A DNA stretch of 61,802 nt, counting the filler. It is 5 parts of 5 records of this genome, joined end to end, with 100 filler letters (N's around TTAATTAATTAA, not from the genome) between each part and the next. Parts side by side here need not be neighbours in the genome. Positions count along the whole stretch, not along the records: positions 44,140 to 56,026 come from SRR22947727_3955; 4 more parts are not named here. One strand, 5' to 3'. Below are positions 44,140-60,613 of this stretch, piece by piece. A program made the position numbers and the translations under genes. How positions within the stretch are numbered: position 1 is the stretch's first letter; the number at the start of each line of letters is the position of its first letter. The notes beneath the pieces are model-generated. The model saw nothing but the letters and a program-made list of their open reading frames with translations. It was not told the DNA's origin and did not search any database.

Positions 44140-44735
44140 AAGGCCCGACGATACGTATCTATTTTAAAGGTCTTTTGAACCCCTGGTGGCACATATATGT
44201 CGAGATATTGCGGATCGGCGGCTATCCCGTCGACTGGACCTTTTTTACCCCAATATTCACCGACAATCACCTTCACGCGCGTGCCATCATCGTCAATGAC
44301 CTCGGGAATTTCCTTGCCGGCCACATCTTGATATCTCGGGTCCGTCATCTTCAAACTGCCGGGTAAATTTCCCCAAAGTTGGAAGCCATGCATCTGTCCG
44401 TTGCGATTGCCCTGGGGCATTTCTTGATGCATGATCCCCCGGCCCGCGGTCATCCATTGCACATCGCCAGCGCCGAGCGTGCCTTTATTTCCAAGGCTAT
44501 CGCCGTGTTCCACACTGCCCGAGAGCACATAGGTGATGGTTTCAATGCCGCGGTGCGGATGCCACGGAAAGCCCTTTTCAAAATCTTCCGTCAATTCATT
44601 GCGAAAATCGTCAAAGAGCAAAAACGGATCCATTTCCGAGGGATCTTGAAATCCAAAAGCGCGGTGCAGTTTGACGCCGGCCCCTTCCAAGGTGGGGGTG
44701 GCTTGCCGTGTTTCAAGTGTGGGGCGTAGTGACAT
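44140..44735 (-). CDS. Pirin family protein (3' truncated)
   Basis: DPFLLFD, GFPWHPHRGIET, QWMTAG.GI.HQE, QLW.NLP. Confidence 0.93.
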
Positions 44736-44791
44736 GAGCTTATCCTTTTTGGCTTAGTTGAGAGATAAGCCACAGCGATGTGAAATCAATA

Positions 44792-45937
44792 TCACGTTCG
44801 TGACCACCATTGCGCGGGTTTCAACCGTCCCTGGCGCCAGCGGTCCAGCCAGAGCGCTAGACCTCGCGCCGGTGAGAGTGCTAATTTGAGCCAAAGCCTT
44901 TGCGGCCAGCTCCTGAAGTCGCGGTTGAAGGGGCAAACGCGCATGCAAATCGCACAATCACTGCTGAGTTTGGTCCAAAACGAAAAGCATTTCTCCGCAT
45001 CAGAGGTCCATTTTTTGACACCTTGAATGGCAGACGGGCCGCCACCAAATTTGGGTGGGTCCAGCGGGAGGGCTTTGACCGGGCAGGCGTCGGCACATTT
45101 GGTGCAGATATCGCAAAATTTCGCGACCCCCGGTCGTTTTGGCCGGTCCGTCGCCAGAGGCATATTGGTAAAAATTTTTGAAAACCGCAGCCTCGGCCCG
45201 AACTGCGGTGTGATAACCAATTGATTTCTGGCGTATTCGCCCAAGCCCGCTTGCACTGCCATGGGGATGACCAGGCCGGTGTCGTTCATGGAGGCCACGG
45301 CCTGATAGCCCAGATTGCGAATATAGGCCGCCAGCTGCATGACAATGGCCGCCTCATGGCTGTATTCGCGCCCCGTGGCGGCACCTCCAAGGGCGGAGGG
45401 GTAACTGCGGACCAATTCGAGATCCATCTCGTGGCCGAGCACCACCACATGCGTTAGCCCCTCTGGCAGGCCAAGGGGCGCTGTGGACATGTCACGCACA
45501 TCGACCCGATCCTCATAAAGCCAGCGGGGATCCAGATCGGTCACGCCGCAGAGATCTGCACCAAAGAAAACTGCCGCTTTTTTGACATTGGCGCTGGCGG
45601 CGCTTGGGGTTTCAAAATGTACTTTTTCCCCAGCCACGGGCGTGTCATTGCTGATGGGGGCTTGGAAGCCTTCGCGCCTGCCGTCGGCGGCGAAACGATC
45701 TGTCATAATGTCCGAAATCAACCAACTGGCATTGCGCAGGGCAAAATCTTTTTGTGTGAATCCGTCGCCCCGGCGGGGGGTGGCTTCCATGCGATAGCTC
45801 GCAAAAAAGGCCTGTGACGCCGCACTGCGGACGGTATCGTCCCAAAATGCGCGGGAGAACACATCATTGCGTTGCGAAAATCTTTTGAATTGCGGTGTGG
45901 TTTCGATGCCAGCGGCAAGATCGTCTGGGTTTTCCAT
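44792..45937 (-). CDS. Reductive dehalogenase-like cobalamin / 2x[4Fe-4S] protein, no TAT leader
   Basis: FFGADLCG, IRNLGYQA, AGLGEYARN...ITPQFGPRLR..TNMPL, CDICTKCADACP, C..W...CAICMRVCPF. Confidence 0.85.
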   Translation of the reverse strand: MENPDDLAAGIETTPQFKRFSQRNDVFSRAFWDDTVRSAASQAFFASYRMEATPRRGDGFTQKDFALRNASWLISDIMTDRFAADGRREGFQAPISNDTPVAGEKVHFETPSAASANVKKAAVFFGADLCGVTDLDPRWLYEDRVDVRDMSTAPLGLPEGLTHVVVLGHEMDLELVRSYPSALGGAATGREYSHEAAIVMQLAAYIRNLGYQAVASMNDTGLVIPMAVQAGLGEYARNQLVITPQFGPRLRFSKIFTNMPLATDRPKRPGVAKFCDICTKCADACPVKALPLDPPKFGGGPSAIQGVKKWTSDAEKCFSFWTKLSSDCAICMRVCPFNRDFRSWPQRLWLKLALSPARGLALWLDRWRQGRLKPAQWWSRT

Positions 45938-46044
45938 GAAAACACACTGCAAAATCACCAGCCGGATGACAAGCGTCGCAAATGAGGGCGACATGTCGCC
46001 AATGGTTGCTTTTCTACGGTCAAAGTTCATTTGGGAGAGAAGAC

Positions 46045-46989
46045 ATGAAAGTTGGATTTATTGGCTTGGGCAATGTTGGGGGCAAATTGGCGGGCAGTTT
46101 GCTGCGCAACGGCATGGATCTCAGCGTTCATGATCTTAACGATAGCTTTGTGGCAGATTTTGTGTCGCGTGGGGCCAAAGACGGGTCAAGCCCAGCGCAA
46201 TTGATGCAGGACTGTGATGCCGTCATTACCTGCCTGCCCAGCCCTGCCGCCTGTGATGCGGTGGTCAGTGAGATGTTGCCGCATGTCGGGCCCGGCAAGA
46301 TTTGGATGGAGATGTCAACGACAGATGCCAGTGAGGTGAAGCGGCTTGGGGCTTTGGTTTTGGCCGCGGGCGGTGAAGCGGTGGATTGCCCCGTGTCAGG
46401 CGGCTGCCATCGGGCCGACACGGGCAATATTTCTATCTATGCCGGCTGCACCCGTGCGACCTTTGACAAGGTTCTGCCAATCCTAACCCATATGGGGCGG
46501 CGCATTTTGCATGTGGGAGAGATTGGCAATTCCAGTACTTTGAAAGTGATGACCAATTACCTCGCCACAGCCAATTTGATCACGGTTTGCGAAGCACTGA
46601 CCGTGATGAAAGCCGCTGGAATGGACCTTGGCATGACCTATGAGGCCATCGCGATGTCCTCTGGCACCTCCTTTGTGCATGAAACCGAAAGCCAGTTGAT
46701 CCTTTCGGGATCGCGCGATGTGAATTTCACAATGGATTTGGTGCAAAAGGACATTGGCCTATTTCAAAAGATTGCCGATGATCACGGCGTGCCTTTGGAA
46801 ATTTCTCCGATGATCATTGATATCATGAGCGATGGGCAAAAACGCTATGGCGTCCGTGCGCAATCGGATCGGATCATTGAGCGTCTGGAGGAGGCTACCG
46901 GATTGAGCATTCAAGCTCCTGGCTTTCCGCAAGAACTTATTGATGATGAACCCGAAGAGCGCGGCTATGAGGTGGTGGTGCGCCGCTAA
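46045..46989 (+). CDS. Beta-hydroxyacid dehydrogenase family (3-hydroxyisobutyrate dehydrogenase-like)
   Basis: GFIGLGNVG, DCPVSGG, LKVMTN, KDIG; GGGAGAG RBS. Confidence 0.9.
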   Translation: MKVGFIGLGNVGGKLAGSLLRNGMDLSVHDLNDSFVADFVSRGAKDGSSPAQLMQDCDAVITCLPSPAACDAVVSEMLPHVGPGKIWMEMSTTDASEVKRLGALVLAAGGEAVDCPVSGGCHRADTGNISIYAGCTRATFDKVLPILTHMGRRILHVGEIGNSSTLKVMTNYLATANLITVCEALTVMKAAGMDLGMTYEAIAMSSGTSFVHETESQLILSGSRDVNFTMDLVQKDIGLFQKIADDHGVPLEISPMIIDIMSDGQKRYGVRAQSDRIIERLEEATGLSIQAPGFPQELIDDEPEERGYEVVVRR

Positions 46990-47078
46990 GGCAAAGTTTA
47001 ACCTTCCATCTTGGCGCGTTTCAAGGCAGGTAGACCGCGAGGCGCCCGCCTCAAAGGTGAAATTTGAGGAAGGCCGAA

Positions 47079-47576
47079 ATGTCAGATTCTGTAATCGCGC
47101 GACTCAAAGCCTCGACGGTGCGTCGCGGCTTTGCCCTTTTTGTCATGATGCTGCTCGGATTTTTGCTTTTATACCTGACGGCCACCATTGATGCGGGATT
47201 TGTGCATAAGGCGTTCTTGGTTGGGATTGCTGCGGCAGTGCTGTGGATGGCGCGCGCTATGCAAAGGGGCACCAAGGGCCATATTGAGCTGCGCGCCTCG
47301 GGGCTCTATTTTGAAGACGGCCGCGTTTTGGCCGCGTTGGATGACATTTTGCGCGTCGAGCGCGGCGTGTTCGCATTCAAACCCTCCAATGGCTTCGTTG
47401 TGACCTTGCAAAACAAGACAGAGCGGGCCTGGATCCCAGGCCTCTATTGGAAATTCGGCACGCGGGTCGGTATCGGCGGGGTGACGGCGCCGTCTGAGGC
47501 GAAATTTATGTCGGACAGTTTAGCGGTTTTGCTCGAAGAGCGCGCAGATTCTCCCTTAATGAACATGAAATTATGA
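47079..47576 (+). CDS. Hypothetical membrane protein (2 TM + soluble domain)
   Basis: Two hydrophobic helices; VERGVFAFKPSNGF..W.PGLYW..G.RVGIGGV; GAGG RBS. Confidence 0.75.
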   Translation: MSDSVIARLKASTVRRGFALFVMMLLGFLLLYLTATIDAGFVHKAFLVGIAAAVLWMARAMQRGTKGHIELRASGLYFEDGRVLAALDDILRVERGVFAFKPSNGFVVTLQNKTERAWIPGLYWKFGTRVGIGGVTAPSEAKFMSDSLAVLLEERADSPLMNMKL

Positions 47577-47654
47577 GAAAATAGGCGTTTTATTTCACAT
47601 GAGCCGCCGTAAGCTGAGGGCAGTATATTTCAACTGCTATTCAGGATAGGTTTC

Positions 47655-49091
47655 ATGAAGGACGCCAACGCATCTGAGCCAAGTTTTCGCGACAGTGTAG
47701 ATATAATGTTCAATCGCGCCGTGGCGCTTTTGGATTTATCGCCGGGATTGGCGGAAAAGATTAGGGTCTGTAATGCCACCTATACGGTGCGCTTTGGGGT
47801 GCGCCTGCGCGGCCAGATGACCACATTCACAGGCTACCGCGCCGTCCATTCGGAACATATGGAGCCGGTTAAAGGTGGCATTCGGTATGCGTTGGGCGTT
47901 AACCAAGATGAGGTGGAGGCGCTTGCCGCTTTGATGACCTATAAATGTGCTTTGGTTGATGCACCTTATGGCGGCTCGAAGGGCGGCCTGCGGATTGATC
48001 CTTTGGCCTATGATGAGCATGAATTAGAGCAAATCACCCGACGCTTTGCCTATGAGCTGATCAAACGTGATTTGATCCACCCGTCGCAAAACGTGCCGGC
48101 TCCGGATATGGGCACGGGCGAGCGGGAAATGGCATGGATTGCTGATCAATATCAGCGGATGCATACAACGGACATTAATGCCCGGGCCTGCGTCACTGGC
48201 AAGCCGGTGAGCGGCGGCGGGATTGAAGGGCGCACGGAAGCGACTGGCCGCGGCGTGCAATATGCCTTGCAAGAGTTCTTCCGTCATCCTGAAGATCTCG
48301 CAGCGGCTGGGCTGTCAGGGGAGCTCGAGTCCAAGGCCATTATTGTGCAAGGGCTTGGCAACGTGGGGTATCACGCAGCGAAATTTTTAAGTGAAGAAGA
48401 TGGTGCGCGGATCACCGGGGTGATTGAGCGGGACGGAGCGGTGCAAAACCCCGATGGCCTGGATATTGAGGCGCTCAAGACCTGGATCGCCGAACATGGC
48501 GGGGTGAAGGGGTTTGAAGGCGGCAGCTATACCGCCGACGGGGCCAGCGTTTTGGAGGCAGATTGTGATATCTTAATCCCCGCGGCCTTAGAGGGGGTTA
48601 TCCACCGTGATAACGCCAATCGGGTGCAGGCGCGTTTGATCGTCGAGGCGGCGAATGGGCCAGTGACGGCCGGGGCGGATGCGATCCTGCGTGAGCGGGG
48701 CGTGGTGATTATCCCGGATATGTACGCCAACGCGGGCGGCGTGACGGTGTCTTATTTCGAATGGGTGAAAAACCTTAGCCATATTCGCTTTGGCCGCATG
48801 GAACGCCGCCGCGAGGAATCGCGCAACCAGCTTATCGTCAATGAGTTGGAGCGGTTGAGCAAATCCAGCAACGTCAATTGGCAGCTGACTCCGAATTTTA
48901 AGGAGAAATATCTGAAAGGCGCCAGTGAATTAGAACTGGTGCGCTCTGGCCTCGATGACACGATGCGCGGCGCATACAACGACATGGCAGAGGTGTGGCG
49001 GCGGCGTGCCGATGTGCCAGATCTGCGAACCGCTGCCTATCTGGTCAGCATCCAAAAGGTCGCCGCATCGTACAAAAACAAGGGATTGTAG
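47655..49091 (+). CDS. gdhA: Glu/Leu/Phe/Val dehydrogenase (glutamate dehydrogenase)
   Basis: KGGIRY, MTYKCA, GGSKGG, VPAPD, GRTEATG, QGLGNVG, NAGGVTVSYFEW. Confidence 0.94.
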   Translation: MKDANASEPSFRDSVDIMFNRAVALLDLSPGLAEKIRVCNATYTVRFGVRLRGQMTTFTGYRAVHSEHMEPVKGGIRYALGVNQDEVEALAALMTYKCALVDAPYGGSKGGLRIDPLAYDEHELEQITRRFAYELIKRDLIHPSQNVPAPDMGTGEREMAWIADQYQRMHTTDINARACVTGKPVSGGGIEGRTEATGRGVQYALQEFFRHPEDLAAAGLSGELESKAIIVQGLGNVGYHAAKFLSEEDGARITGVIERDGAVQNPDGLDIEALKTWIAEHGGVKGFEGGSYTADGASVLEADCDILIPAALEGVIHRDNANRVQARLIVEAANGPVTAGADAILRERGVVIIPDMYANAGGVTVSYFEWVKNLSHIRFGRMERRREESRNQLIVNELERLSKSSNVNWQLTPNFKEKYLKGASELELVRSGLDDTMRGAYNDMAEVWRRRADVPDLRTAAYLVSIQKVAASYKNKGL

Positions 49092-49175
49092 CTCAATTGA
49101 CAGTGCCGCGACCGAAAAGGTAGGTAGCAGTTGGGGTTGCGATCATGCGCAGCTGCCTTTTGGAGATGTATAGTT

Positions 49176-50783
49176 GTGCGCGATTGGTTTAAAAACATAC
49201 TAACCAGACATGTTGGGTTGGTGAGTTTTACGGCTGCTGTTTGTGTGTTCACTTTGGCAGCATTTCAAGCGCCTTTGCTCTCCTATGCGTTGCGGTTCAG
49301 TGATCTGCATACGGTTGAGGGCTGGGTGCAAATCTTATCGTTGCAAGTGCTGCAATTTTGCCTTTTCGCCGCCCTTGCCTGCATTCTGGCTACCATTGCG
49401 CTTTGGCTGATGAAGACGGTGGTAGCAGTGTTGTTCATCGTTAATGCGGTTGCGCTCTATTTTATGCTGACCTACGGAATTGAAATTGATCGTACCATGG
49501 TCGGGAATATCTTAAACACTGACCAACGCGAAACCGCTGAGCTCTTGCATCTGTCGCTTTTGCCTTATGTGCTGTTTCTGGGAATAATTCCGGCTGTTGT
49601 GGTCTTAGCAATCAAAGTGCAGGCTCCCAAGCGCATTTGGCGCCTAGCCTTGGCGCTTGGGGCGATTGGCGTGTTGGCCGCATGGAGCATCGTAACCTCT
49701 TTCACAATGCTTTGGTATGACCGACATGCATCGCGCATGGGCAGTAAAATTCTGCCTTGGTCCTATGTTGTAAACGTCGCGCGGCACTTCAATCGCGTCG
49801 CTATGGACAACCGCGAACAAGTTCTATTGCCCGATGCATATTTTGTGACTGCGCCCTCAGCGCCTAAAGATGTTGTGGTCTTGGTCATTGGAGAAGCCGC
49901 CCGCGCAGACCGTTTTTCCGCTCTTGGATATGCGCGGCAGACAAACCCGTTTACTGCCCGCTATGATCTCGCGGTTTTCCCTGCTGGTCTGGCGTGTTCG
50001 ACGAATACTATTTCGTCTACAGCCTGTATCTTAACCCACGAAGGGCGCCACGCATCAGCGCGTACGGTCTTTGAGCCGCTCCCAAACTACCTCAAGCGCC
50101 AGGGCATTGCGACAATTTTTCGGTCCAACAACTTTGGTCCGCCGCCGATTGATGTGGACCTGTACCAAAATCGGGCTGACATTCTGGAGGCTTGTGCGGC
50201 TGCGCCTTGTCCCGAAGGCGGATCTGATGCGCTCTTGAATTGGCAATTGGGAGATTTGATTGAACAGGCACAGAGCGCGCGTGTTTTTGTGACCCTGCAC
50301 CAAACTGGCAGTCATGGCCCGGCATATTATAGCAAATATCCGAAGGAGTTTGAGTATTTTACCCCGGTCTGTGATACAGTTCAGGTGTCGCGCTGTTCGC
50401 AAGAGGCCTTGGACAACGCCTATGACAACACGATCCGCTATACGGACAGTCTGATTGCTGATTTGATCGCGCAGCTTGATGCCCTAGGCGATGTTAATGC
50501 GGCATTGATCTACGTGTCCGATCACGGTCAATCTCTGGGTGAAAACGGTTTTTATTTGCATGGTGCACCCAACGCAATTGCGCCTAAAGCGCAACGCGAA
50601 GTGCCGTTTTTTGTGTGGATGTCCGAGGGTTTTGCCCAAGCGCGCAACCTGACGCCTCAATCGATCCTTCGTCAGGAGACCCACCCCCATGACTTTCCAT
50701 TTCACAGTGTCATGGGCGCCTTCGGTTTGCGCAGTGAGATATACAAACCCGAGTTTGACATATTCAACAATTATGAGCAGTAG
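49176..50783 (+). CDS. eptA: Phosphoethanolamine transferase, EptA family copy 1 (Helicobacter-like subtype)
   Basis: About 5 TM + sulfatase-like domain: VIGEAAR, CSTNT, GSHGP, NAYDNTI, SDHGQSLGE..YLHG; GGAGA RBS before GTG 49176. Confidence 0.9.
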   Translation: MRDWFKNILTRHVGLVSFTAAVCVFTLAAFQAPLLSYALRFSDLHTVEGWVQILSLQVLQFCLFAALACILATIALWLMKTVVAVLFIVNAVALYFMLTYGIEIDRTMVGNILNTDQRETAELLHLSLLPYVLFLGIIPAVVVLAIKVQAPKRIWRLALALGAIGVLAAWSIVTSFTMLWYDRHASRMGSKILPWSYVVNVARHFNRVAMDNREQVLLPDAYFVTAPSAPKDVVVLVIGEAARADRFSALGYARQTNPFTARYDLAVFPAGLACSTNTISSTACILTHEGRHASARTVFEPLPNYLKRQGIATIFRSNNFGPPPIDVDLYQNRADILEACAAAPCPEGGSDALLNWQLGDLIEQAQSARVFVTLHQTGSHGPAYYSKYPKEFEYFTPVCDTVQVSRCSQEALDNAYDNTIRYTDSLIADLIAQLDALGDVNAALIYVSDHGQSLGENGFYLHGAPNAIAPKAQREVPFFVWMSEGFAQARNLTPQSILRQETHPHDFPFHSVMGAFGLRSEIYKPEFDIFNNYEQ

Positions 50784-51414
50784 GCAGCCTATGACATTCA
50801 AAGAACTTTTGTCCCAACCGCTAAAGGTTATCTACCGCCATACTGTGGTGATATGCATGGTGGTGTTGATCATTCTTGCGGCGACCTTCTATCCCAGCGA
50901 TATGAAAAACGATTATGCAGTCTCAAAAGGTGGGCATGAGCGACCCGCGATTGTGGCGTTTGAAGATTATGGGCGTCACATTAACACGCTTCTACCCTTT
51001 GTGCTCGCCCTGGTCTTGAAAGACAAAGAGGGCTGGAAGCAATTGGGCATGATAACGGTTGCCGGGATTTTGGCGTCACATGGTCCGAAGCGGCTACTCA
51101 ATGATGTTGAAATCATGGGCACGCGGTTGGGTCAAAGGCCCAATTCGACAACCAGCAAACATAATATGCCATCGGGGCATTCAACGCTTGCGGGGGCTTG
51201 CGCTTATTTTGTAATGCGCCGGTACAGTATTTGGTTTGGTGTCATTGTGATCCCGGTTTTGCTATTTACAATGTACGCGCGGGTTATGTTGGACAAGCAT
51301 ACGATTTCTGCTACAATATCGGGTGCTGGAACTGGACTTTTGGTGGCGGCATTGTTTTCGACAAAACTGTCTGGTTTTCGCCGTCAAATAGCGCGATTCT
51401 TTGGGGTCACATGA
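50773..51414 (+). CDS. lpxE: PAP2 phosphatase, lipid A 1-phosphatase LpxE-like
   Basis: PAP2 motifs K...RP, PSGH, R.....H (KRLLN..GQRP, NMPSGHS, ARVMLDKH); start overlaps eptA1. Confidence 0.75.
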   Translation: MSSRQPMTFKELLSQPLKVIYRHTVVICMVVLIILAATFYPSDMKNDYAVSKGGHERPAIVAFEDYGRHINTLLPFVLALVLKDKEGWKQLGMITVAGILASHGPKRLLNDVEIMGTRLGQRPNSTTSKHNMPSGHSTLAGACAYFVMRRYSIWFGVIVIPVLLFTMYARVMLDKHTISATISGAGTGLLVAALFSTKLSGFRRQIARFFGVT

Positions 51415-52154
51415 AATCTTCGTCTTCCGCTCCAAGAGAGCCACTTTCTAAGATGTTACCGAATATCGTAACGATTTTCGGCATTTGCGTTGGGTTGACG
51501 GCGGTGCGTTCTGCGCTGCAGGGCAACGTCAGCGTGGCATTGTATTTGTTGGTTCTGGCAATGATTTTGGATGCCGCCGATGGCCGGCTGGCGCGGGCTT
51601 TGAAAAGTGAGAGTAAAATTGGAGCCGAATTGGACACATTGGCCGATTTTTTCAATTTCGGGATCGCGACGCCTCTGGTAATCTATTTTACCATCTTTGT
51701 GGACTCGGATGCTGCGAGATTTGGGTGGATCGCAGTCATGATCTTTTCGATCTGCTGCGCCCTGCGCTTGGCGCGCTTTAATGTCAGCCAATCGGATGGG
51801 GCTAAATCGGTTGATTTTGTAGGAGTGCCTGCGCCCGCATTGGCCTGCTTGGGATTGTCGCCGCTGTTTTTGGTCATGGCCGGGGTGGATGTCGCTGGCC
51901 GTTATGTCGAGGTGGCCATCATATTTGTCGTGATCTGTGCGGGTCTTGCGGTGGGCACATTTCCAACCATGTCATTGAAGGGCACAACCTTCCCGGCCTC
52001 CATGCGGTTGCCGGTGATTTTGCTGGCGGTTGCCTTTGTGATTAGCCTGTTTGTTTTCCCTTGGTATACGCTTCTGTTTTCTAATGCTATTTACTTGGTG
52101 ATGATCCCCGTTTATTGGTTCTCAAAACGCGCAAAAACGGCCAAAAGGACTTAA
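51411..52154 (+). CDS. pssA: CDP-diacylglycerol--serine O-phosphatidyltransferase
   Basis: LPN.VT, DAADGRLAR..S.IGAELDTLAD...FG..P, LRLARFN, F.GVP.P; ATGA overlap. Confidence 0.9.
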   Translation: MKSSSSAPREPLSKMLPNIVTIFGICVGLTAVRSALQGNVSVALYLLVLAMILDAADGRLARALKSESKIGAELDTLADFFNFGIATPLVIYFTIFVDSDAARFGWIAVMIFSICCALRLARFNVSQSDGAKSVDFVGVPAPALACLGLSPLFLVMAGVDVAGRYVEVAIIFVVICAGLAVGTFPTMSLKGTTFPASMRLPVILLAVAFVISLFVFPWYTLLFSNAIYLVMIPVYWFSKRAKTAKRT

Positions 52155-52157
52155 GCA

Positions 52158-53768
52158 ATGATACCGATCAGGGCGATGCATCCTTTGATGCTGGTGGTCG
52201 TTGCTGTTGCAACGCTCTTTGCTATTTATAACCAGACGTTTTGGGGCCTATGGGCTGAAGTTTTCGAAGGCAATTATCCCAGTGGGTTGATGTTTGCGGC
52301 GGCATTCTTTTCTTTGTGTTGCGCTTTGCTCGGTGGACTGGCTTTTCGGTCGGTCCTGCGTCCGCTGATCGCGGGGCTTTTTGTGGTCTCTGCTGTGACG
52401 TCTTATTACATGGATGAGCTCGGGGTCGTGATTGACCGGGAAATGATCCAAAACGTCGTCAGCACAACCTGGACAGAAGGCAAACATCTCGTCACACCCC
52501 CCTTTGTTTTCTGGATTGTCATAGCGGGAATTGTGCCGGCACTCGTTGTGCTAGCGGTGCCGCTGTCACGGCGCAGGCTCTGGCGGACCCTATGGCAAAA
52601 TGCTTTGTTTTCGACGCTCTGCGTGATCGGATTTGTTGGGCTTTTGTTGAGTGATATGAAAGACTATGCGTCGATTTTGCGGAACCGCGGAGATCTAAAG
52701 GCAAGCTTTCAGCCCTTGGCCCCCGTGGTCGAATCCGTGCGCTTCGTGGCGATGCTCAGTCGATCTAGGACATTGCCCTTTGTCGCCATCGGCTTGGATG
52801 CGGTGCGGAAAAAGGCTGGCAATGTCTATGATCTTCCGACGGTGACCGTTGTGGTGGTGGGCGAGACCGCAAGGGCACAGAACTTTAGCCTTGGGGGATA
52901 CGGACGCGACACCAATCCCCGTTTGGCCGCAGAAGATATTTTGTATTTTGAGAACGTCTCCAGTTGTGGCACCTCAACGGCCGTCTCCCTTCCCTGCATG
53001 TTTTCGCGATACGGTCGAAGGGACTATTCGCATGAGCTAGGTGTTTCGCATGAGAATGTTTTGGACGTGATCCAACGCTCAGGGATGCGGGTGGAATGGA
53101 TTGAAAACAACACGGGTGACAAGGGGGTGGCGGCGCGCATTGGCTATAGGCAAGTCACCTATGCCGAAGATCCCGAGTTTTGCGGCGAAGGGGAATGTAT
53201 CGATGGCATTTTGGTCAAGGAAGTGGCGAAGCTTTTGCCAAAGATTGACCAAGACACCGTCCTTGTTTTGCATCAAATCGGCAGCCATGGGCCGTCTTAC
53301 TATCTGCGTTACCCGGAGGCTTTTGAGCGGTTCAAACCGGCCTGTCGCACTGCAAATTTCAGCGCCTGTACTCAGGAAGAGGTGGTCAACGCCTATGATA
53401 ATACCATTCTTTATACGGACAAAGTCTTGCAGGACTTGATCGCGCTGCTCTCAGCGCAAGACGATTTGGCCACCGCGATGCTTTATGTATCCGACCATGG
53501 AGAATCTTTGGGAGAAAATGGCCTCTATCTACATGGCACGCCCTATTTTATGGCCCCCGATGAACAAACCAAGGTCCCGATGCTGTTTTGGCAGTCACAG
53601 GCCTTTGCCGACAGCGTGGGGATTGATGATGGGTGTTTGAAATCGAAGGCCTCCGCTGCCTATTCCCACGATCATCTGTTTCATTCATTGTTGGGGCTGA
53701 CAGCTGTGGAGACCGCCGAGCGCAACCCTGAACTTGATATTTTTGCCGACTGTGGGAGAAACGGATGA
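52158..53768 (+). CDS. eptA: Phosphoethanolamine transferase, EptA family copy 2 (canonical EptA/MCR-like)
   Basis: VVGETAR, SCGTSTAVSLPCMFS, HQIGSHGP, NAYDNTI, SDHGESLGE..YLHG. Confidence 0.93.
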   Translation: MIPIRAMHPLMLVVVAVATLFAIYNQTFWGLWAEVFEGNYPSGLMFAAAFFSLCCALLGGLAFRSVLRPLIAGLFVVSAVTSYYMDELGVVIDREMIQNVVSTTWTEGKHLVTPPFVFWIVIAGIVPALVVLAVPLSRRRLWRTLWQNALFSTLCVIGFVGLLLSDMKDYASILRNRGDLKASFQPLAPVVESVRFVAMLSRSRTLPFVAIGLDAVRKKAGNVYDLPTVTVVVVGETARAQNFSLGGYGRDTNPRLAAEDILYFENVSSCGTSTAVSLPCMFSRYGRRDYSHELGVSHENVLDVIQRSGMRVEWIENNTGDKGVAARIGYRQVTYAEDPEFCGEGECIDGILVKEVAKLLPKIDQDTVLVLHQIGSHGPSYYLRYPEAFERFKPACRTANFSACTQEEVVNAYDNTILYTDKVLQDLIALLSAQDDLATAMLYVSDHGESLGENGLYLHGTPYFMAPDEQTKVPMLFWQSQAFADSVGIDDGCLKSKASAAYSHDHLFHSLLGLTAVETAERNPELDIFADCGRNG

Positions 53769-54154
53769 GCGATAAGCCACAAAAACCAGACAAAATTCAT
53801 GGCATTGCCCATTTGTTCGCTGCCGCGCGCTATTCTATGGCAGGGGGGCAGCGTCTTTGGGGGGAAACTGCGTTTCGCCATCAGCTTTTGGCAGGCCTAT
53901 GTATTGTTGCGATTTTGATTTGGATTGGGGCAGAAATGTCGCATATTGTCATGTCCATCATATTGGTCGGGCTCACGATTGCGGCCGAAGCGCTCAACAC
54001 GGCGATTGAAGAAATTGTCGATCTGGTGTCACCGGAGTGGTCACTTGCCGCAAAACATGCCAAAGACCTCGGGTCATTCGCGGTTTTCTCTATGCTTTGT
54101 CTGAATGGGATTTTTGCGCTTTTCGTGATCTTAACAACTTTGAATTGGATTTAA
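53765..54154 (+). CDS. dgkA: Diacylglycerol kinase
   Basis: [17 protein letters not shown]....AK.AKDLGS; 3 TM; ATGA overlap. Confidence 0.93.
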
Positions 54155-54158
54155 TCTG

Positions 54159-54851
54159 ATGAATATGATGAAAGTCGTCGCTGTCCCGATGCACCCTGAA
54201 GGACGCAAATTTGTTGCGGTATTTGCCGCTGTGACGGCTGCGCTTTGGCTGGTCTGGGAGCCGCTATTTTGGCTTGGCTTAGGGTTGACCACTTGGTGCT
54301 ACTACTTTTTCCGCGATCCGGTGCGCTCTGTAGCTCAAAGACCGGGGCTTATCCTGTCCCCGGCTGATGGGGTGGTGTCTTTGATCACCAAGACCGTCCC
54401 GCCCGCGGATATGCAACTGGGCGATAAGCCTTTGACTCGCGTGTCTGTGTTCATGAATGTCTTCAACTGTCATGTGAACCGCGCACCCATTGCCGGCTCT
54501 GTGGTGGCGATTTGCTATCACCATGGCAAGTTTCTCAACGCATCTTTGGACAAGGCGAGCGAGCACAATGAGCGTAACTCCATCACCATTGAATCTGCTG
54601 ATAAAACTCGAATTGGGGTGACACAGATCGCCGGACTCGTGGCGCGCCGTATTGTCTGTTTTACAAAGGTGGGCGAGACCTTGGGCGTGGGCGAGCGGTT
54701 TGGCTTGATCCGTTTTGGCAGCCGTTTGGACATCTTCCTGCCCGAGGGCGTGGAGCCTGCTGTTGGTCTGGGACAGACAGCGGTGGCCGGTGAAACTATT
54801 TTGGCACGCTTGAACGTGCCCGCAGAAGACTGGCCCAGTAAACCGATTTAA
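54159..54851 (+). CDS. psd: Phosphatidylserine decarboxylase proenzyme (short type)
   Basis: [40 protein letters not shown] (GS autocleavage site). Confidence 0.94.
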
Positions 54852-54962
54852 GCGGCCGGTACCTAGCGTGCCGGGATCAGAGCCGTGAACCTTTGCATTC
54901 CCCTTGCCAAAGCCCAGATATTTTTATTCACTGACGTGTGTTTCAATTAGCAGGTTTAAGCC

Positions 54963-56026
54963 ATGCGCTTTTCAGCTCTGAAAGTTCTCACCCAAGGGTT
55001 GACCGGTAACCGTGGTTGGCGGGCGCATTGGCGCGATCCTGAGCCGGCGGAGGCCTATGACATTGTGATCATTGGCGGCGGTGGGCATGGCCTATCAACA
55101 GCATACTACCTGGCAAAAGAACATGGGCTGAGGCGCATTGCCGTGCTGGAGAAAGGCTATATTGGTGGCGGCAATATTGGACGGAATACAACCATCGTTC
55201 GGGCCAATTACTTCTTGCCTGGGAACTCGGAATTTTATTCGCATTCCCTGAAGCTTTGGGAAGGGCTGGAGGCGGATCTCAATTACAATGTTATGCATTC
55301 CCAGCGTGGGCAAATTGGCCTGTTTCACAGCGATGGGCAAAGGGACGCGGCCATTCGCCGGGCCAATTCCATCCGAAACCAAGGCGATGATGCGGAGTTG
55401 TTGTCCGTGGCGCAACTGCGCAAGATGGTGCCTTACTTGGACTATGATCAGGGGCGCTTCCCTATTTATGGCGGCCTGTTGCAGCGGCGCGCGGGCACGG
55501 CGCGGCATGATGCGGTGGCCTGGGGCTATGCGCGCGGGGCCGATCAGCTTGGTGTGGATTTGATCCAAAATTGCGAGGTGACGGGCATCGACATCGTGCA
55601 GGGGGTGGTGCAAGGCGTACAAACCAGCCGCGGTGCCATACGCGCAAAGAAAGTGGCGATGGTGGTCGCGGGGCGCTCTAGCCAGGTGGCGGCCATGGCG
55701 GGCATGCGCCTTCCCATCGAAAGCCACGTGCTGCAGGCTTTTGTGACCGAGGGGCTGAAACCCTGTATTGATCATGTGATCAGCTTCGGCATGGGGCATT
55801 TTTATATCAGCCAATCGGACAAAGGCGGTTTGGTCTTTGGCGGGGATCTGGATATGTATGCCAGCTATGCTGCCCGCGGTAATCTGCCAATGGTGGAGCA
55901 TGTGGCGGAAGCTGGGATGACGCTTATGCCGATGATCGGCAAGGCGCGGATGCTGCGCAGCTGGGGCGGCATCATGGATATGACCCCCGATGGCTCACCC
56001 ATTATCGATAAAACCCATATTGAGGG
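54963..56026 (+). CDS. soxB: Sarcosine oxidase beta subunit (3' truncated)
   Basis: IGGGGHGL, GRNTTIVRANY, GTARHDAVAWGYA, SQSDKG, WGGIMDMTPDGSP. Confidence 0.94.
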
Positions 56027-56126
56027 NNNNNNNNNNNNNNNNNNNNNNNNNNNNNNNNNNNNNNNNNNNNTTAATTAATTAANNNNNNNNNNNNNNNNNN
56101 NNNNNNNNNNNNNNNNNNNNNNNNNN
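56027..56126. other. Artificial contig linker
   Basis: 44 N + TTAATTAATTAA + 44 N. Confidence 0.99.
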
Positions 56127-56969
56127 ACTAATTATATTAGTGCTTTAAATTTTCCTAACACTGATGATCCGTTGTATAAAAAGTTTTGGCCTGCCAATAT
56201 CCATATTATTGGTAAAGATATTTTGAGATTTCATTCAGTATATTGGCCTGCTTTTCTAATGGCAGCTAAAATACCTCTTCCATTAAAAGTATTTGGTCAT
56301 GGGTGGATTTTATCTGATGAAAAAAAAATGTCTAAGTCTCTGGGTAATATTTTAGACCCTTTAGAAATCATAGATAAATATGGAATTGATCAACTAAGAT
56401 ATTATTTATTGAAAGAAGTTTCGCTTGGAAATGATGGAAACGTTTCAATGGAAAATTTAAAAAATTGCATTAATAATGATTTAGCTAATAATTTTGGTAA
56501 TTTATGTCAAAGAGTTTTTTCTTTTATTGAAAAAAATTGTGAAGGCAAACTACCTAAACCAAGTAATTTAGCTGTAGAAGACATAAATCTTATTAATAAT
56601 TTAGTTAAAAAAGTTCCAGACTTAATTAATGATATGAACCGACAAGATTTAAATAATTATATTAAACAGGTTGTTGAATTTTCTTTTGAGGCAAATAAGT
56701 ACGTTAATGACTTACAACCTTGGGCATTAAAAAAAACAGATCTTAATAGAATGAATACCATTTTATTTTCTATTGTATTGCAAATTAAAAATATTAGTAT
56801 TTTATTGAGTCCAATTATTCCTATTAGCAGTAATAAAATATTAGATATTCTTAATCTTAAAAATGAAGATAGATTGATTAACTCTATAAGTGATAAAGAT
56901 TTATTTGATCATGAAAAACCCTTTCAAAAAACATCAATTCTTTTTAAAAAAATAGATGATGATAATTGA
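56127..56969 (+). CDS. metG: Methionine--tRNA ligase (5' truncated)
   Basis: HIIGKDILRFH..YWPA, HGW, KMSKSLGN, LANNFGNL; frame open from the contig edge. Confidence 0.95.
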   Translation, partial: TNYISALNFPNTDDPLYKKFWPANIHIIGKDILRFHSVYWPAFLMAAKIPLPLKVFGHGWILSDEKKMSKSLGNILDPLEIIDKYGIDQLRYYLLKEVSLGNDGNVSMENLKNCINNDLANNFGNLCQRVFSFIEKNCEGKLPKPSNLAVEDINLINNLVKKVPDLINDMNRQDLNNYIKQVVEFSFEANKYVNDLQPWALKKTDLNRMNTILFSIVLQIKNISILLSPIIPISSNKILDILNLKNEDRLINSISDKDLFDHEKPFQKTSILFKKIDDDN

Positions 56970-57735
56970 TTCCCATTGTCATCTTGAATACGAACCAATG
57001 GCTTCTAATTTAGAAGAAGTCATTAAAAGAGGTGAAAACAATAACGTTAAATTTTTTTTGAGTATTTCTACTACCGATGATAGCTATGAAAAAATATTAA
57101 AAATTGTAGCTAAGCACCCCTCTATTTACGGAACCTACGGCATTCATCCCCATGAAACAAAGGACTATTCAATGCTAACATCAAGCGAAATTATTAATAA
57201 AATTAATTCAAATAAAAAAATAATTGGCATTGGTGAAAGTGGACTAGATTTTTATTACAATCATTCCGATAAAGATATTCAAATAAAGATATTTAAAGAG
57301 CATATAAAAGCATCGCAAGAAACAGGTTTACCTTTAATTGTTCATACAAGATCAGCTGAACAAGAAACATTTGATATTTTAAAAAAAGAAAAAGAAAAAA
57401 AAGATTTTAAGATTTTAATCCATTGTTTTACAGGCTCACATCAATTTGCTCTAAAATTAATTGATTTAGGATGTTATATTTCCGCAAGTGGTGTAGTGAC
57501 ATTTAAGAACTCTAAATCTCTAGCTGATACTTTTTTAAATCTTCCAAATGATCGAATTTTAGTTGAGACAGATTCCCCATATTTATCTCCAGAACCACTT
57601 AGGGGCAAATCCAATGAACCCTCTCATATAATTCATACTATAAACTTCCTTGCAAATTTAAAAAAAATTAATTCAAACGAATTTGCAAATATTACAACTG
57701 ATAATTTTTTTAGATTATTTGGTAAATTAAATTGA
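56956..57735 (+). CDS. tatD: TatD family deoxyribonuclease
   Basis: DSHCH, GIHPH, IGESGLD, HTR, HCF, ETDSPYL. Confidence 0.94.
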   Translation: MMIIDSHCHLEYEPMASNLEEVIKRGENNNVKFFLSISTTDDSYEKILKIVAKHPSIYGTYGIHPHETKDYSMLTSSEIINKINSNKKIIGIGESGLDFYYNHSDKDIQIKIFKEHIKASQETGLPLIVHTRSAEQETFDILKKEKEKKDFKILIHCFTGSHQFALKLIDLGCYISASGVVTFKNSKSLADTFLNLPNDRILVETDSPYLSPEPLRGKSNEPSHIIHTINFLANLKKINSNEFANITTDNFFRLFGKLN

Positions 57736-58502
57736 AAAATAAATTTACCATACTTGGTTGTGGAAGTTCCCTTGGTTCTCCTTGGATAACTAATTATTGG
57801 GGAAAATCTAATTCTAATAATAAAAAAAATTTAAGAACAAGATGTTGTGCTCATTTTCAATATAAAGACATTTCTGTATTAATTGATACCTCACCGGATA
57901 TAAAACAACAAATTATTAGAAATAAAATTAAAAATATTGACGCTGTTATTTATACCCATGAACATGCCGACCAAACTTCTGGCATCTTTGAATTGAGACC
58001 TTATTTTTGGATAAATAAAAAGAAATTAGATATTTATGCAAGTAGTAAAACAATGAAAGAATTAAAAGAGAAGTATGATTTTGTTTTTAAAAAGAAACAC
58101 GGATATATACCCATAGGTAAAGCTAACGTAATCAAGGATAAATTTTTAATAAATAAGGGTAAAACAAAAATCCAAGTCGAAGCAATTGAAGTTCCCCATG
58201 GGTTAATTAAATCTACTGGGTTTATAATCAATAAAATTGCCTACTTAAGTGATTGTAGCTCAATACCAAGAAATGCAGAAAAATCATTAATAAATTTAAA
58301 CTACTTAATAATTGATTGCCTGAGATTTAAATACCATCCAGGTCACCTTAATCTAGATGGCGCGCTCGAAGTAGCAAAGAGGTTAAAACCAAAAATAACA
58401 ATTTTAACGAATCTACACGTTGATCTAGATTACAGTTTGCTTAAGAAAAAACTACCATCAAATATTATTCCAGCCTTTGATGGAATGAGTTTTACTTTTT
58501 AA
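57732..58502 (+). CDS. Metallo-beta-lactamase fold hydrolase (PhnP-like)
   Basis: LGCGSS.G.P, IDTSPD, THEHADQ, Y.SD, AFDG. Confidence 0.9.
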   Translation: MKNKFTILGCGSSLGSPWITNYWGKSNSNNKKNLRTRCCAHFQYKDISVLIDTSPDIKQQIIRNKIKNIDAVIYTHEHADQTSGIFELRPYFWINKKKLDIYASSKTMKELKEKYDFVFKKKHGYIPIGKANVIKDKFLINKGKTKIQVEAIEVPHGLIKSTGFIINKIAYLSDCSSIPRNAEKSLINLNYLIIDCLRFKYHPGHLNLDGALEVAKRLKPKITILTNLHVDLDYSLLKKKLPSNIIPAFDGMSFTF

Positions 58503-59037
58503 GCTCTCTTTCAATTAACTCTATAAAGCGATTAGATGTTGGTTTTGTTATAGAGGCAAACGTATCAACAACCTTTCCATTTTTACCTATCACAATTTTA
58601 TGAAAATTCCATTTTGGAACAGCTCCTGATCCGTGGTTTTTTTTTGCCCAAAGGAAAAAGGGATGTGCATCTTTACCTATAACTTCTGTTTTTTCAGTTA
58701 TTGGAAAATCAATACCAAAAGTAGTTTCACAAAAATCTTTAATCTCTTGGTTAGATCCAGGTTCTTGTCTAAAATTATTTGATGGGACTCCAATAACTAC
58801 CAATCCTTCAGATTTATATTTACTCCAAATGGTCTGAAGATCTTCATATTGATTAGTAAATCCACATTTACTTGCTACATTAACAACTATTATTACCTTA
58901 TCTTTGTAATCTTGTAATTTTATTTCACCTCCATCAACATTTTTAAAAGAAAATGAATTTGCAAGAGTTGAATAGTTCGCGTGACCTTTAGAGAAGAATG
59001 AGAGCATTAATATAAATATAAATAGAGTTTTTTTCAT
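58492..59037 (-). CDS. Glutathione peroxidase family (Cys type) with N-terminal signal peptide
   Basis: NVASKCGFT, PSNNF.QEP, PKWNFHK; MKKTLFIFILML leader. Confidence 0.92.
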   Translation of the reverse strand: MKKTLFIFILMLSFFSKGHANYSTLANSFSFKNVDGGEIKLQDYKDKVIIVVNVASKCGFTNQYEDLQTIWSKYKSEGLVVIGVPSNNFRQEPGSNQEIKDFCETTFGIDFPITEKTEVIGKDAHPFFLWAKKNHGSGAVPKWNFHKIVIGKNGKVVDTFASITKPTSNRFIELIERELKK

Positions 59038-59039
59038 AC

Positions 59040-59441
59040 TCAAGCGCTTATTGCCTTATGCAATGCATTTAATGGTAGTAAAATGCATTTAAAACGATCT
59101 TTATTTTTAATATTCAAAATTTTTTTTAATTCCTTTAAGCAAGGATTAATTTCAGGAACTTCATATTCTTTCGTAAATAATATTTGTTTTAATTCATTTT
59201 TAATAACATTTGTTTTCTTTTTCTTAACAGTTCTAGATAGCAAACTTGCAGATGCTTGACAAAAAATACAGGACTCTGTTTCGTAATGCATTCGTTCTAA
59301 AATTCCATTTTTAATTATTGCCTCAACAGTAATCGTATCGCCACAAAATTTATTTTTTAGACTAGCTCTATACTTTGATTTATTTATCAAGCCATAATTT
59401 GAGGTATTGGCTGCAATTTTTATAATATCGCCTGTAATCAT
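59040..59441 (-). CDS. IscU/SufU (NifU N-terminal)-like protein
   Basis: NKFCGDTI, SCIFCQASAS, RFKCILLP. Confidence 0.8.
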   Translation of the reverse strand: MITGDIIKIAANTSNYGLINKSKYRASLKNKFCGDTITVEAIIKNGILERMHYETESCIFCQASASLLSRTVKKKKTNVIKNELKQILFTKEYEVPEINPCLKELKKILNIKNKDRFKCILLPLNALHKAISA

Positions 59442-60613
59442 TCCTTTTTAGTTGAAGCTTTTAATAAAAAATATCCAACTAAAGTTGATAGTAAAGAACC
59501 AACGAGAACACCAATTTTAACACCATCTAAATTTGATGTTGCGTCAGCAAAAGCCAAATTACCAACAAACAAACTCATAGTAAATCCTATTCCAGTAAGT
59601 ATTCCAACGGCGTATAAATTCGTCCATGTTGATTGATTAGGCATTTGAGCTAATCCCATTTTTACTGATACGTAAGAAAAAAAGAAAACACCAATTTGTT
59701 TACCAAAAAATAAACCACAGACAATTCCAAGAGGCACAGGATTAAGTAAGGTGCTAAGCCCAAGACCTTCTAAAGACACGCCTGCATTTGCAAAAGCAAA
59801 TAATGGCATTATTCCAAATGCAACATAAGGTGCGATCGAGTGCTCTAATTTAAGTAAAAGTGATTTACTTTTTTCTTTAGTGTTATGTGGAATGAGTAGG
59901 GCAAGGAGCACGCCAGATATAGTTGCGTGAATGCCCGATTGATGCGTAAAATCCCACAAGAGTATTCCTACAATTAGATAGGGAAGGAAAATTTTAATAT
60001 TAAACCTATTAAAAAAAATTAAGACTACCAAAGCCAGTCCCATTAATATTAAATAAGTCACTTGTATGTTTCCAGAATAAAAGAAAGCAATAATTACTAT
60101 TGCACCAAGATCATCGATTATAGCTAAAGCTGTTAAAAAAATTTTCAATGAAAGAGGTACTCTTTTACCTAATAATGATAACACACCTAGAGAAAACGCT
60201 ATGTCTGTAGCCGCAGGTATGGCCCAACCCTTAATTGTGTCTGGTGAGTTAATATTAATGAAGACGTATATTAAAGCTGGCACGAGCATACCACCAACAG
60301 CAGCTATGATTGGTAATAAAGCTTGTTTAGGATTTGATAATTCACCCTGAACCATCTCTCTTTTTATCTCAAGAGAAACAAGAAAGAAAAAAATTGTCAT
60401 TAACACATCGTTGATCCAATGTAAGACACTTAGTTTTAATTTAAATGATGATATACCGACCGCAAAATAAGTATTTAAAGTATCAAAATATAGGTTTGCA
60501 AAGCCACTGTTACTAATGATTAATGCAATAGCTGCGGAAAACAGCAGGACTAAACCTGATGCTGACTCTAATTTAAAAAATTCCTTAAAGGGTTTTGTTA
60601 AGATTTGAATCAT
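59438..60613 (-). CDS. nhaA: Na+/H+ antiporter NhaA
   Basis: WINDVLM, LEIKRE, ATDIAF, AIIDDLG, GIGFTMSLF. Confidence 0.96.
   Translation of the reverse strand: MIQILTKPFKEFFKLESASGLVLLFSAAIALIISNSGFANLYFDTLNTYFAVGISSFKLKLSVLHWINDVLMTIFFFLVSLEIKREMVQGELSNPKQALLPIIAAVGGMLVPALIYVFININSPDTIKGWAIPAATDIAFSLGVLSLLGKRVPLSLKIFLTALAIIDDLGAIVIIAFFYSGNIQVTYLILMGLALVVLIFFNRFNIKIFLPYLIVGILLWDFTHQSGIHATISGVLLALLIPHNTKEKSKSLLLKLEHSIAPYVAFGIMPLFAFANAGVSLEGLGLSTLLNPVPLGIVCGLFFGKQIGVFFFSYVSVKMGLAQMPNQSTWTNLYAVGILTGIGFTMSLFVGNLAFADATSNLDGVKIGVLVGSLLSTLVGYFLLKASTKKE

Follow-up and report, generated by a model that had tools for sequence, protein, structure and literature searches.

Phosphoethanolamine (pEtN) transferases of the EptA type move pEtN from phosphatidylethanolamine (PE) to lipid A phosphates and release diacylglycerol (DAG), which DgkA converts to phosphatidic acid (PA). 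PE itself is made from CDP-DAG and serine by PssA and Psd, and in Helicobacter pylori LpxE removes the lipid A 1-phosphate and EptA puts pEtN in its place. Genes for such enzymes are known as pairs, namely H. pylori LpxE (HP0021)/EptA (HP0022) and the lpxE-eptA pair of Capnocytophaga canimorsus, which are covered by the available parts of two studies (PMC3245313, PMC4730577). A survey of 69,814 MCR-like proteins, in its available text, reports pap2 and dgkA as accessory genes beside mcr/ept and gives two-component systems, TetR, pap2, and dgkA as Ept gene contexts (PMC10285318). Here, we analyze a string of six genes, eptA1-PAP2-pssA-eptA2-dgkA-psd, on one of five contigs that are joined in a stretch of 61,802 nucleotides (the window, along which all positions are counted). 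The contig at 44140-56026 carries the whole string and is assigned by its closest matches to a Planktomarina (RCA cluster) roseobacter. The locus probably represents core PE genes that are interleaved with two accessory lipid A-modifying modules in one native Planktomarina locus.

What is new is the gene order; the six enzymes and both pairings (ept-pap2 and ept-dgkA) are textbook knowledge. A preliminary description of this DNA had stated that pairs of this kind are known but not the full six-gene unit, and our literature search agrees with it, as ept-pap2 and ept-dgkA have been described and the six-gene string was not found in the literature searched. The search also yielded no description of PE-synthesis genes in a string with ept modules, nor of the roseobacter eptA2-dgkA-psd-pssA strings that we present below. 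In the available text of the MCR survey, the terms psd, pssA, and phosphatidylserine have no occurrence, though its supplementary tables might list such neighbors (PMC10285318).

Results

Gene order and junctions

All six genes lie on the plus strand. The first gene, eptA1, ends at 50783 and has an uncertain start, either a TTG at 49131 or a GTG at 49176. It is followed by the gene of an LpxE-like PAP2 phosphatase (ATG at 50773 or 50791, end at 51414), pssA (51411-52154), eptA2 (52158-53768), dgkA (53765-54154), and psd (54159-54851). The junctions are very tight, with -4 nt at PAP2/pssA, +3 nt at pssA/eptA2, -4 nt at eptA2/dgkA, and +4 nt at dgkA/psd. The initial claim of six co-oriented genes with gaps or overlaps of at most 4 nt thus holds for the orientation and for four of the five junctions. 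It holds only nearly for eptA1/PAP2, where the distance is -11 nt from ATG 50773 and +7 nt from ATG 50791, the latter being the start that aligns with the relatives.

Comparison with described gene arrangements

As in the H. pylori and C. canimorsus pairs, a PAP2 phosphatase gene adjoins an ept gene, and the H. pylori models are the best or the only match of EptA1 and PAP2 of the window. The two proteins may therefore carry out the same two-step swap of the 1-phosphate for pEtN as the H. pylori pair. Unlike in these pairs, eptA1 precedes the PAP2 gene and pssA follows directly, and the scores are just below the equivalog cut-offs. The string also resembles the mcr-1-pap2, mcr-3-dgkA, and mcr-7 (with pap2 and dgkA) contexts in having eptA2 and dgkA with overlapping stop and start codons and eptA1 beside pap2, and its second module, eptA2-dgkA, resembles the Neisseria EptA/mcr-3-dgkA type. 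In contrast to the mcr contexts, both cassettes stand in one string with PE-synthesis genes, on a non-mobile chromosomal locus of a non-pathogenic pelagic host.

The pssA and psd genes correspond to the psd-pssA pair of Alphaproteobacteria. Psd is 68-79% and PssA 41-50% identical to the proteins of other roseobacters, and the pair is likewise the sole PE route. In Ruegeria pomeroyi DSS-3, psd-pssA on the megaplasmid is followed by a gene for a class I S-adenosylmethionine-dependent methyltransferase, likewise a probable PE consumer. Unlike the usual pair, the two genes of the window are split and reordered (pssA ... psd), with eptA2-dgkA between them and eptA1-pap2 in front. The closest arrangements are eptA2-dgkA-psd-pssA strings in Sulfitobacter, Marinosulfonomonas, Profundibacter, and other Alphaproteobacteria loci, while Lentibacter and Roseobacter carry eptA2-psd-pssA. 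The eptA2-dgkA-psd-pssA strings share the substring eptA2-dgkA-psd with the window, and their EptA2 belongs to the same deep clade. They differ from the window in that pssA stands after psd and no eptA1-pap2 is in line. Two loci (L062 and L068) have a PAP2 gene nearby on the other strand, in L062 together with eptA1.

Family evidence for the six proteins

The gene identities given in the preliminary description (eptA1, PAP2, pssA, eptA2, dgkA, and psd) were supported by Pfam, NCBIfam, and structure-sequence alignments. Both Ept proteins contain EptA_B_N (PF08019) and Sulfatase (PF00884) domains over their full length, with 109.7 and 161.1 bits, respectively, in EptA1. The best NCBIfam match of EptA1 is NF007160 (H. 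pylori EptA), with 506 bits at a cut-off of 561. EptA1 aligns over its full length to MCR-1 (9nww, 225.7 bits) and to Neisseria EptA (5fgn, 220.2 bits), with conservation of the Glu, Thr, His, Asp-His, and His positions of the motifs. EptA2 exceeds the cut-off of the lipid A transferase domain model NF028537 (558.6 versus 500), stays below that of the E. coli equivalog NF008619 (525.7 versus 660), and matches Neisseria EptA 5fgn over its full length with 402 bits, keeping the blocks SCGTSTA, GSHGP, VSDHGESLGENG, and YLHG. The blocks GE(A/T)ARA, C(S/G)T(N/S)T, GSHGP, VSDHG(Q/E)SLGENG, and YLHG are kept in both EptA1 and EptA2; they presumably include the catalytic Thr nucleophile and the metal-binding Glu, Asp-His, and His residues of the MCR-1 and NmEptA structures.

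The PAP2 protein matches Pfam PF01569 with 37.4 bits, and its sole NCBIfam match is NF007159 (H. pylori LpxE), with 164 bits, an E-value of 3e-48, and coverage of model positions 4-187 of 191. As this score is below the cut-off of that model, we name the protein LpxE-like and not LpxE. The translation shows PSGH and R-x5-H, which are invariant in the five relatives compared, and the first motif has a non-canonical spacing; the acid-phosphatase motifs of this family are KX6RP, PSGH, and SRX5HX3D. A search of the PAP2 sequence against the PDB gave no match, and a PAP2 fold would not distinguish LpxE from other PAP2 enzymes.

PssA matches CDP-OH_P_transf (PF01066) with 69.3 bits at a cut-off of 22, the motif D-G-x2-A-R-x8-G-x3-D-x3-D is readable in its translation, and the protein groups on the PssA tree with the products of psd-adjacent pssA genes of other roseobacters, to which it has the 41-50% identity mentioned above. 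It is thus most likely the housekeeping copy of a type II CDP-diacylglycerol--serine O-phosphatidyltransferase. DgkA matches DAGK_prokar (PF01219) with 81.9 bits over profile positions 1-101 of 102, and the cluster dgkA is the only full-length dgkA in three of the five Planktomarina genomes searched. Psd is of the short type, exceeds the cut-off of NF003677 (351.5 versus 315), matches PS_Dcarbxylase (PF02666) with 145.7 bits, and contains FGSR, a self-cleavage-type motif.

Recurrence in Planktomarina

Whether the arrangement recurs was examined by a PssA search with one genome per species. The best 80 of 135 confirmed relatives were taken as loci and searched with eight window proteins by local tblastn, followed by frame checks. 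The closest PssA relatives belong to Planktomarina or its clade, beginning with isolate IMCC1909 (99% identity) and continuing from 94% down to 65%, which shows that the early guess of a roseobacter host was correct. All six genes are intact and in the same order in 10 of the 15 Planktomarina-clade loci (L013 and L018-L026), so that the arrangement was confirmed in 10 further species of this clade. The junction gaps in these loci range from -17 to +7 nt, and the PAP2 gene directly follows eptA1 in all of them; L062 and L119 contain such an eptA1-PAP2 pair as well. The lowest identities among the intact loci are 58-61% for the Ept proteins, 64-68% for PAP2, PssA, and DgkA, and 75-79% for Psd. 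Four of the other five loci have lost parts of the string, and the fifth (L027) is ended by a contig boundary. Among the loci examined, the full six-gene string is confined to the Planktomarina clade.

The comparison of the window with L013 gave dN/dS values of 0.06 for pssA, psd, and PAP2, 0.11 for eptA1, 0.18 for eptA2, and 0.24 for dgkA, next to 0.03 for the flanking genes gdh and soxB. Purifying selection thus acts on all six genes where they are present, and less so on eptA1, eptA2, and dgkA. Together with the intact order in 10 other species-level loci, this means that the six-gene arrangement is more than a chance assembly.

In one of the intact loci, which stems from a metagenome-assembled genome (MAG), PAP2 and PssA form a single in-frame open reading frame (ORF) of 454 amino acids (L019:9380-10744). 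As a single case it is anecdotal, and it may reflect either a genuine Rosetta-stone fusion or an error of the MAG; in the closest relatives, a stop codon lies one to six codons ahead of the pssA ATG. A PAP2-PssA fusion in L021 and L022 was ruled out by direct translation, which revealed that a stop codon precedes the pssA ATG by six codons.

Inheritance of the locus

In the PssA tree, the Planktomarina clade has a support of 97, and the six-gene order is found in all three of its subclades. The EptA tree shows a deep split into an EptA1 type and an EptA2 type, each of which tracks the species grouping. As the order is present in all subclades and the trees track the species, the order is ancestral to the genus and vertically inherited. 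Eleven of the 15 Planktomarina-clade loci, among them L013-L020, L022, and L027, have the glutamate dehydrogenase gene gdh as their syntenic upstream neighbor, and in the basal clade L023-L026 it does not adjoin the string. There, in L023, genes for PNPase, an aldehyde dehydrogenase, RluA, and a GlcD-like protein lie upstream, and genes for HtpG, an ArsC-family protein, and DapF lie downstream. The string therefore occupies at least two chromosomal neighborhoods (gdh/soxB versus PNPase...HtpG), both with housekeeping genes.

These data bear on the initial idea of a portable, self-sufficient surface-charge island, in which PE would serve purely as pEtN donor and which could work in PE-poor hosts. 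The gene set indeed spans donor synthesis, transfer, and DAG salvage, the order is kept in two chromosomal neighborhoods, and an extra pssA on a long branch stands beside eptA2-dgkA in two other roseobacter genomes. However, the flanks examined show neither integrase or transposase genes nor repeats at the borders of the block, and the sole insertion sequence (IS) interrupts eptA1 in one strain. Moreover, the guanine-plus-cytosine (GC) content of the block equals that of its flanks, the gene trees track the species, and among 72,556 plasmid records there is none with at least 80% of the cassette. The claim of portability and self-sufficiency is not supported by this evidence, and we regard the locus, as far as can be judged from its sequence and surroundings, as native, vertically inherited, and chromosomal, and not as a mobile island or plasmid cassette.

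PE genes as core genes

The carrier's remaining genes were read from genome G208, which contains a near-identical copy of the contig, and from G002-G006, not from the window's own genome. In all six genomes, PF02666 (Psd) has one match, which lies at the cluster. PF01066 has three to five matches per genome. In G002, the other PF01066 genes encode PgsA, a Pcs-like protein below the cut-off, an unassigned CDP-alcohol transferase, and a PssA-like paralogue of 221 amino acids. A check for further pssA or psd genes in carriers, suggested at the outset, thus gave a mixed outcome, with no further psd in 6/6 genomes and a PssA-like paralogue in 2/5.

In G002, a gene for a PssA-like CDP-alcohol transferase of 216-221 amino acids is divergent from and beside a cytidylyltransferase-like gene (L122:15514-16835), and this pair may represent a Kennedy-like pathway for head groups via CDP-alcohols. 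The same genome has a third gene of the Ept family, encoding 537 amino acids (L122:1923-3536), which lies 13 kb from the PssA-like paralogue and adjoins a GT2/FkbM-methyltransferase gene.

The lipid composition of the group was taken from the available parts of two publications. Liquid chromatography-mass spectrometry (LC-MS) of six RCA isolates, one of them the type strain, lists PE, phosphatidylglycerol (PG), acyl-PG, PA, and ornithine lipid as major lipids (PMC7779409), whereas a taxonomic paper states that the type strain has no PE by classical polar-lipid analysis (PMC11943960). The latter statement would suit the idea of a portable donor-making island, but we consider a Planktomarina without PE to be outweighed by the LC-MS lipidomics. 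For the same reason, the notion of a PE-poor host is not supported.

In L014-L017, in which ept genes are interrupted or lost, pssA and psd are full length and stop-free. With psd being single-copy and PE being a major lipid, the cluster pssA and psd are bulk-PE housekeeping genes and not a dedicated donor supply. The initial view that PE is made here specifically as a donor is thus not supported, in view of both the sole psd copy in 6/6 carriers and the persistence of pssA and psd where ept genes are gone. As these findings also argue against a portable island, that explanation is largely refuted for Planktomarina, and we consider it highly improbable.

Decay of the ept modules

Unlike the PE genes, the ept modules are damaged or lost in close relatives. 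In IMCC1909, an IS3-family element is inserted in eptA1 at the equivalent of window position ~49730 (L014:7126-8316); it consists of an HTH_Tnp_1 ORF and an rve ORF with imperfect inverted repeats of 24 nt. In L015, eptA2 is missing together with the 3' part of eptA1 and the 5' part of dgkA. L016 has neither eptA1 nor PAP2, and L017 has lost eptA1, PAP2, and eptA2 and has retained dgkA. In G208, a 1-nt deletion in a T5 run (window positions 49913-49917, T4 in G208) frameshifts eptA1. This T4 may reflect either true decay or a sequencing error in the homopolymer, and the deletion is not among the differences listed for four RNA-labelled runs that cover the contig. These observations show that the two ept modules are accessory, dispensable add-ons to core PE genes, and that the six-gene order is eroding in the crown clade that includes the organism of the window.

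Linkage of ept and dgkA to PE genes in other roseobacters

The 65 non-Planktomarina loci come from the PssA search, and the sample is therefore biased to close PssA relatives. A bare psd/pssA pair is present in 47 of them (35 psd-pssA, 11 pssA-psd, and one convergent), in agreement with the initial statement that the usually adjacent pair is split in the window; one further locus is ended by a contig boundary. In the remaining 17 loci, eptA and/or dgkA abut psd/pssA. Seven of these have the order eptA2-dgkA-psd-pssA (eKDS), four eptA2-psd-pssA (eDS), three dgkA-psd-pssA (KDS), two eptA2-dgkA-pssA (eKS), and one dgkA-pssA with a reverse eptA1 (KS-E). In addition, 301 evenly sampled family genomes were searched for an EptA2 homologue at E <= 1e-60, with flanks of 1.5 kb only. 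Such a homologue was found in 23 genomes, with dgkA adjoining it in 15 and psd/pssA in four, two of which are Planktomarina. The linkage of ept/dgkA to PE genes is thus recurrent in roseobacters and far from universal.

Two roseobacter genomes, G007 (L056 and L036) and G008 (L082), have two pssA genes each, one beside psd and one beside eptA2-dgkA. The ept-side copies are on long branches of the PssA tree and fast-evolving, and they are the best hint in the data for a PssA that is dedicated to Ept function. As further side aspects, psd-pssA of several roseobacters lies on large non-mobilizable plasmids or chromids (L123, R. pomeroyi DSS-3; L124, Aliiroseovarius), and Halieaceae (Gammaproteobacteria; L071-L079, L086, and L088) carry a pair of short-type psd and type II pssA, whose products share ~71% (Psd) and ~44% (PssA) identity with those of roseobacters. 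In the PssA tree, the Halieaceae are placed on a separate, long branch.

These data allow weighing a historical accident, in which ept-pap2 and ept-dgkA cassettes landed in a tolerant site by pssA/psd without any coupling. It would fit with the loss of the modules independently of pssA/psd, with the bare psd/pssA pair in 47/65 loci, with the 19 of 23 EptA2-carrying family genomes that have no psd/pssA beside eptA2, and with the IS in eptA1 that the cultured isolate IMCC1909 tolerates. It does not fit well with the adjacency of ept/dgkA and psd/pssA in several genera and in six orders (the five given above and EPSeKD, the order of the window), nor with the substring eptA2-dgkA-psd that is common to the Planktomarina and eKDS orders. 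Also, four adjacent cases among 23 are far above the ~0.1% expected for a random gene position (a rough estimate, not a computed test), the tight junctions persist across ~60% protein identity, and an extra pssA stands beside eptA2-dgkA in two genomes. We therefore regard an accident as unlikely.

Transcription

A consensus scan found nine promoter-like sites versus 6.0 ± 2.5 expected and 11 terminator-like sites versus 10.1 ± 3.1 expected, and the two flanking gaps contain no significant hairpin (folding z-scores +1.06 and -1.31). A 10-of-12 promoter-like site at 51290-51317, in the 3' end of the PAP2 gene, was rejected as a pssA promoter; its conservation is explained by the codons of the PAP2 catalytic motif, and the deletion variants have only a degenerate form of it.

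Fourteen RNA-labelled runs contain 0.87-0.89 of the sampled words. Contigs of four of the runs (X1, X4, X6, and X9, from four studies) span the whole 11.9-kb contig with flat depth and include opposite-strand genes and intergenic DNA, with one contig of 8,044 nt corresponding to 46288-54331. Assembled contigs cannot reveal transcripts, and DNA may be present in RNA-labelled runs. The four runs (marine, oligo-dT seawater, salt marsh, and aquatic) share one set of differences from the window, a pattern more suggestive of shared DNA carry-over, a spike-in, or a single widespread clone than of expression.

Source contig and neighboring genes

Four linkers of N...TTAATTAATTAA...N (12079-12178, 36879-36978, 44040-44139, and 56027-56126) split the window into five contigs, as determined by script and by reading the GC transitions; TTAATTAATTAA is an all-frame stop spacer inside the linkers. 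Along the window, the composition profile swings between ~30-34% and 51-54% GC. The contigs are 1-12078 (34% GC), 12179-36878 (51%), 36979-44039 (34%), 44140-56026 (11,887 nt, 53.7%), and 56127-61802 (30%). The second contig (24.7 kb) is 100% identical to part of genome G001 (1.8 Mb), which does not contain the six-gene fourth contig and matches it only weakly, at the gene level. The fourth contig is 99.72% identical over all 11,887 nt to part of genome G208 (3.3 Mb) and 97% identical to the named isolate IMCC1909. The GC contents and the matches to G001 and G208 indicate that the source assembly mixes at least two, probably three, organisms. As the assembly is a mixture, only 44140-56026 can serve as context for the six genes.

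The string is flanked, outside the unit, by gdh upstream (47655-49091, plus strand; Pfam ELFV_dehydrog) and by a sarcosine oxidase beta-family gene, soxB, downstream (54963-56026, plus strand; TIGR01373, 566 bits). The apparent truncation of soxB is the contig end at 56026, which is followed by the N linker, so that the gene is not broken; metG on the fifth contig is likewise ended by a contig boundary and not a broken gene. The same Planktomarina contig carries, on the minus strand, a reductive-dehalogenase-family gene at 44792-46030 (TIGR02486, 173.8 bits at a cut-off of 160, with a 4Fe-4S dicluster domain), which is adjoined by a pirin gene at 44088-44735.

Discussion

The chemical logic that had been proposed for the locus (PE supply, pEtN transfer, DAG salvage, and 1-dephosphorylation) follows from established family knowledge. 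The content and order of the genes, their conservation, copy number, and selection, and the decay patterns are direct observations; enzyme activities, the lipid A acceptor, regiochemistry, and co-expression are deduced from homology. In the first module, the LpxE-like PAP2 would strip the 1-phosphate from lipid A, and EptA1 would then attach pEtN at this position. In the second module, EptA2 would take pEtN from PE, attach it to a phosphate of lipid A, and thereby release DAG, which DgkA would re-phosphorylate to PA. PssA and Psd would make the bulk PE, which doubles as pEtN donor. Together with a CdsA that is encoded elsewhere, the string would cover the whole loop from PE via lipid A modification, DAG, and PA back to PE. 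LpxC is present in G208 and G002, indicating that lipid A is made. RCA bacteria reportedly have no PlcP, and Ept activity is therefore a plausible main DAG source for DgkA; however, L017 has kept dgkA although both of its cluster ept genes are gone.

As an alternative acceptor, one or both Ept proteins could decorate Kdo/core sugars, periplasmic glucans, or a protein, and PAP2 could be a general lipid phosphatase that acts on C55-PP, PGP, or PA. EptA1 and PAP2 are under the equivalog cut-offs, PAP2 has no solved relative by sequence, the known non-lipid-A Ept members EptB and CptA/EptC appear as weaker NCBIfam matches, and in L019 PAP2 forms an in-frame fusion with the phospholipid enzyme PssA, all of which would be compatible with this. 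However, EptA2 clears the lipid A transferase domain model as described above, and its EptA score greatly exceeds those for EptB (202) and CptA (101); the same is true for EptA1 (506, 159, and 101 for EptA, EptB, and CptA, respectively). PAP2 matches the LpxE model alone in NCBIfam and is consistently paired with an H. pylori-type EptA1, and such a pairing acts on position 1 of lipid A in the systems covered by the available parts of the two studies (PMC3245313, PMC4730577). A non-lipid-A acceptor thus appears quite improbable, and lipid A remains the favored candidate acceptor.

Several points weigh against the reading of the locus as core PE genes interleaved with lipid A-modifying modules. 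First, EptA1 is below the NCBIfam cut-offs not only of NF007160 (506 versus 561) but also of NF028537 (393.7 versus 500), PAP2 is just below that of NF007159 (164 versus 177), and PssA is below that of TIGR00473 (89.9 versus 107 bits), so that the specific activities of these three proteins are nearest-family assignments. In addition, the third PAP2 motif ends in Ala instead of Asp in these proteins. Second, eptA2(-dgkA) stands away from psd/pssA in 19 of the 23 family genomes, which means that the linkage is not obligatory for Ept function. Third, the PssA-like paralogue of 221 amino acids (TIGR00473, 60 bits) in 2/5 genomes makes "only pssA" less secure than "only psd". Fourth, the promoter and terminator scans were no better than chance, and IMCC1909 could be cultured although an IS interrupts eptA1 ahead of the single housekeeping pssA of this isolate, so that one or more separate promoters probably serve the PE genes. 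Finally, a search of the literature on lipid A or pEtN transferases of Planktomarina or roseobacters found nothing relevant, neither experiments nor lipid A chemistry for Planktomarina.

A more far-reaching interpretation is that PE synthesis and the pEtN decoration of lipid A run as one stoichiometrically coupled circuit (PssA-Psd-EptA-DgkA plus CdsA), both in Planktomarina and in those roseobacters that have eptA2-dgkA-psd(-pssA) strings. Tight translational coupling, and the PAP2-PssA fusion in L019, would ensure that donor PE is made where and when it is consumed, and the membrane-disrupting DAG would be recycled at once. We regard such a coupling as doubtful.

The analysis reveals no new kind of system and has no bearing on mobile colistin resistance. 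Its meaning lies in the finding that an abundant pelagic genus has its only genes for PE synthesis interleaved with two putative lipid A pEtN modules, which offers a comparative-genomic argument that PE donor supply and DAG salvage matter for Ept function beyond clinical mcr. In addition, close relatives provide a natural loss series, with modules that are intact, frameshifted, IS-disrupted, or deleted, the latter concerning one or both modules. This series could show what pEtN-modified lipid A does for a free-living marine bacterium, be it cationic-peptide resistance, phage adsorption, or envelope stability. The coupled circuit, if true, would be an undescribed organizational level that links bulk phospholipid synthesis to outer-membrane remodelling in abundant ocean bacteria.

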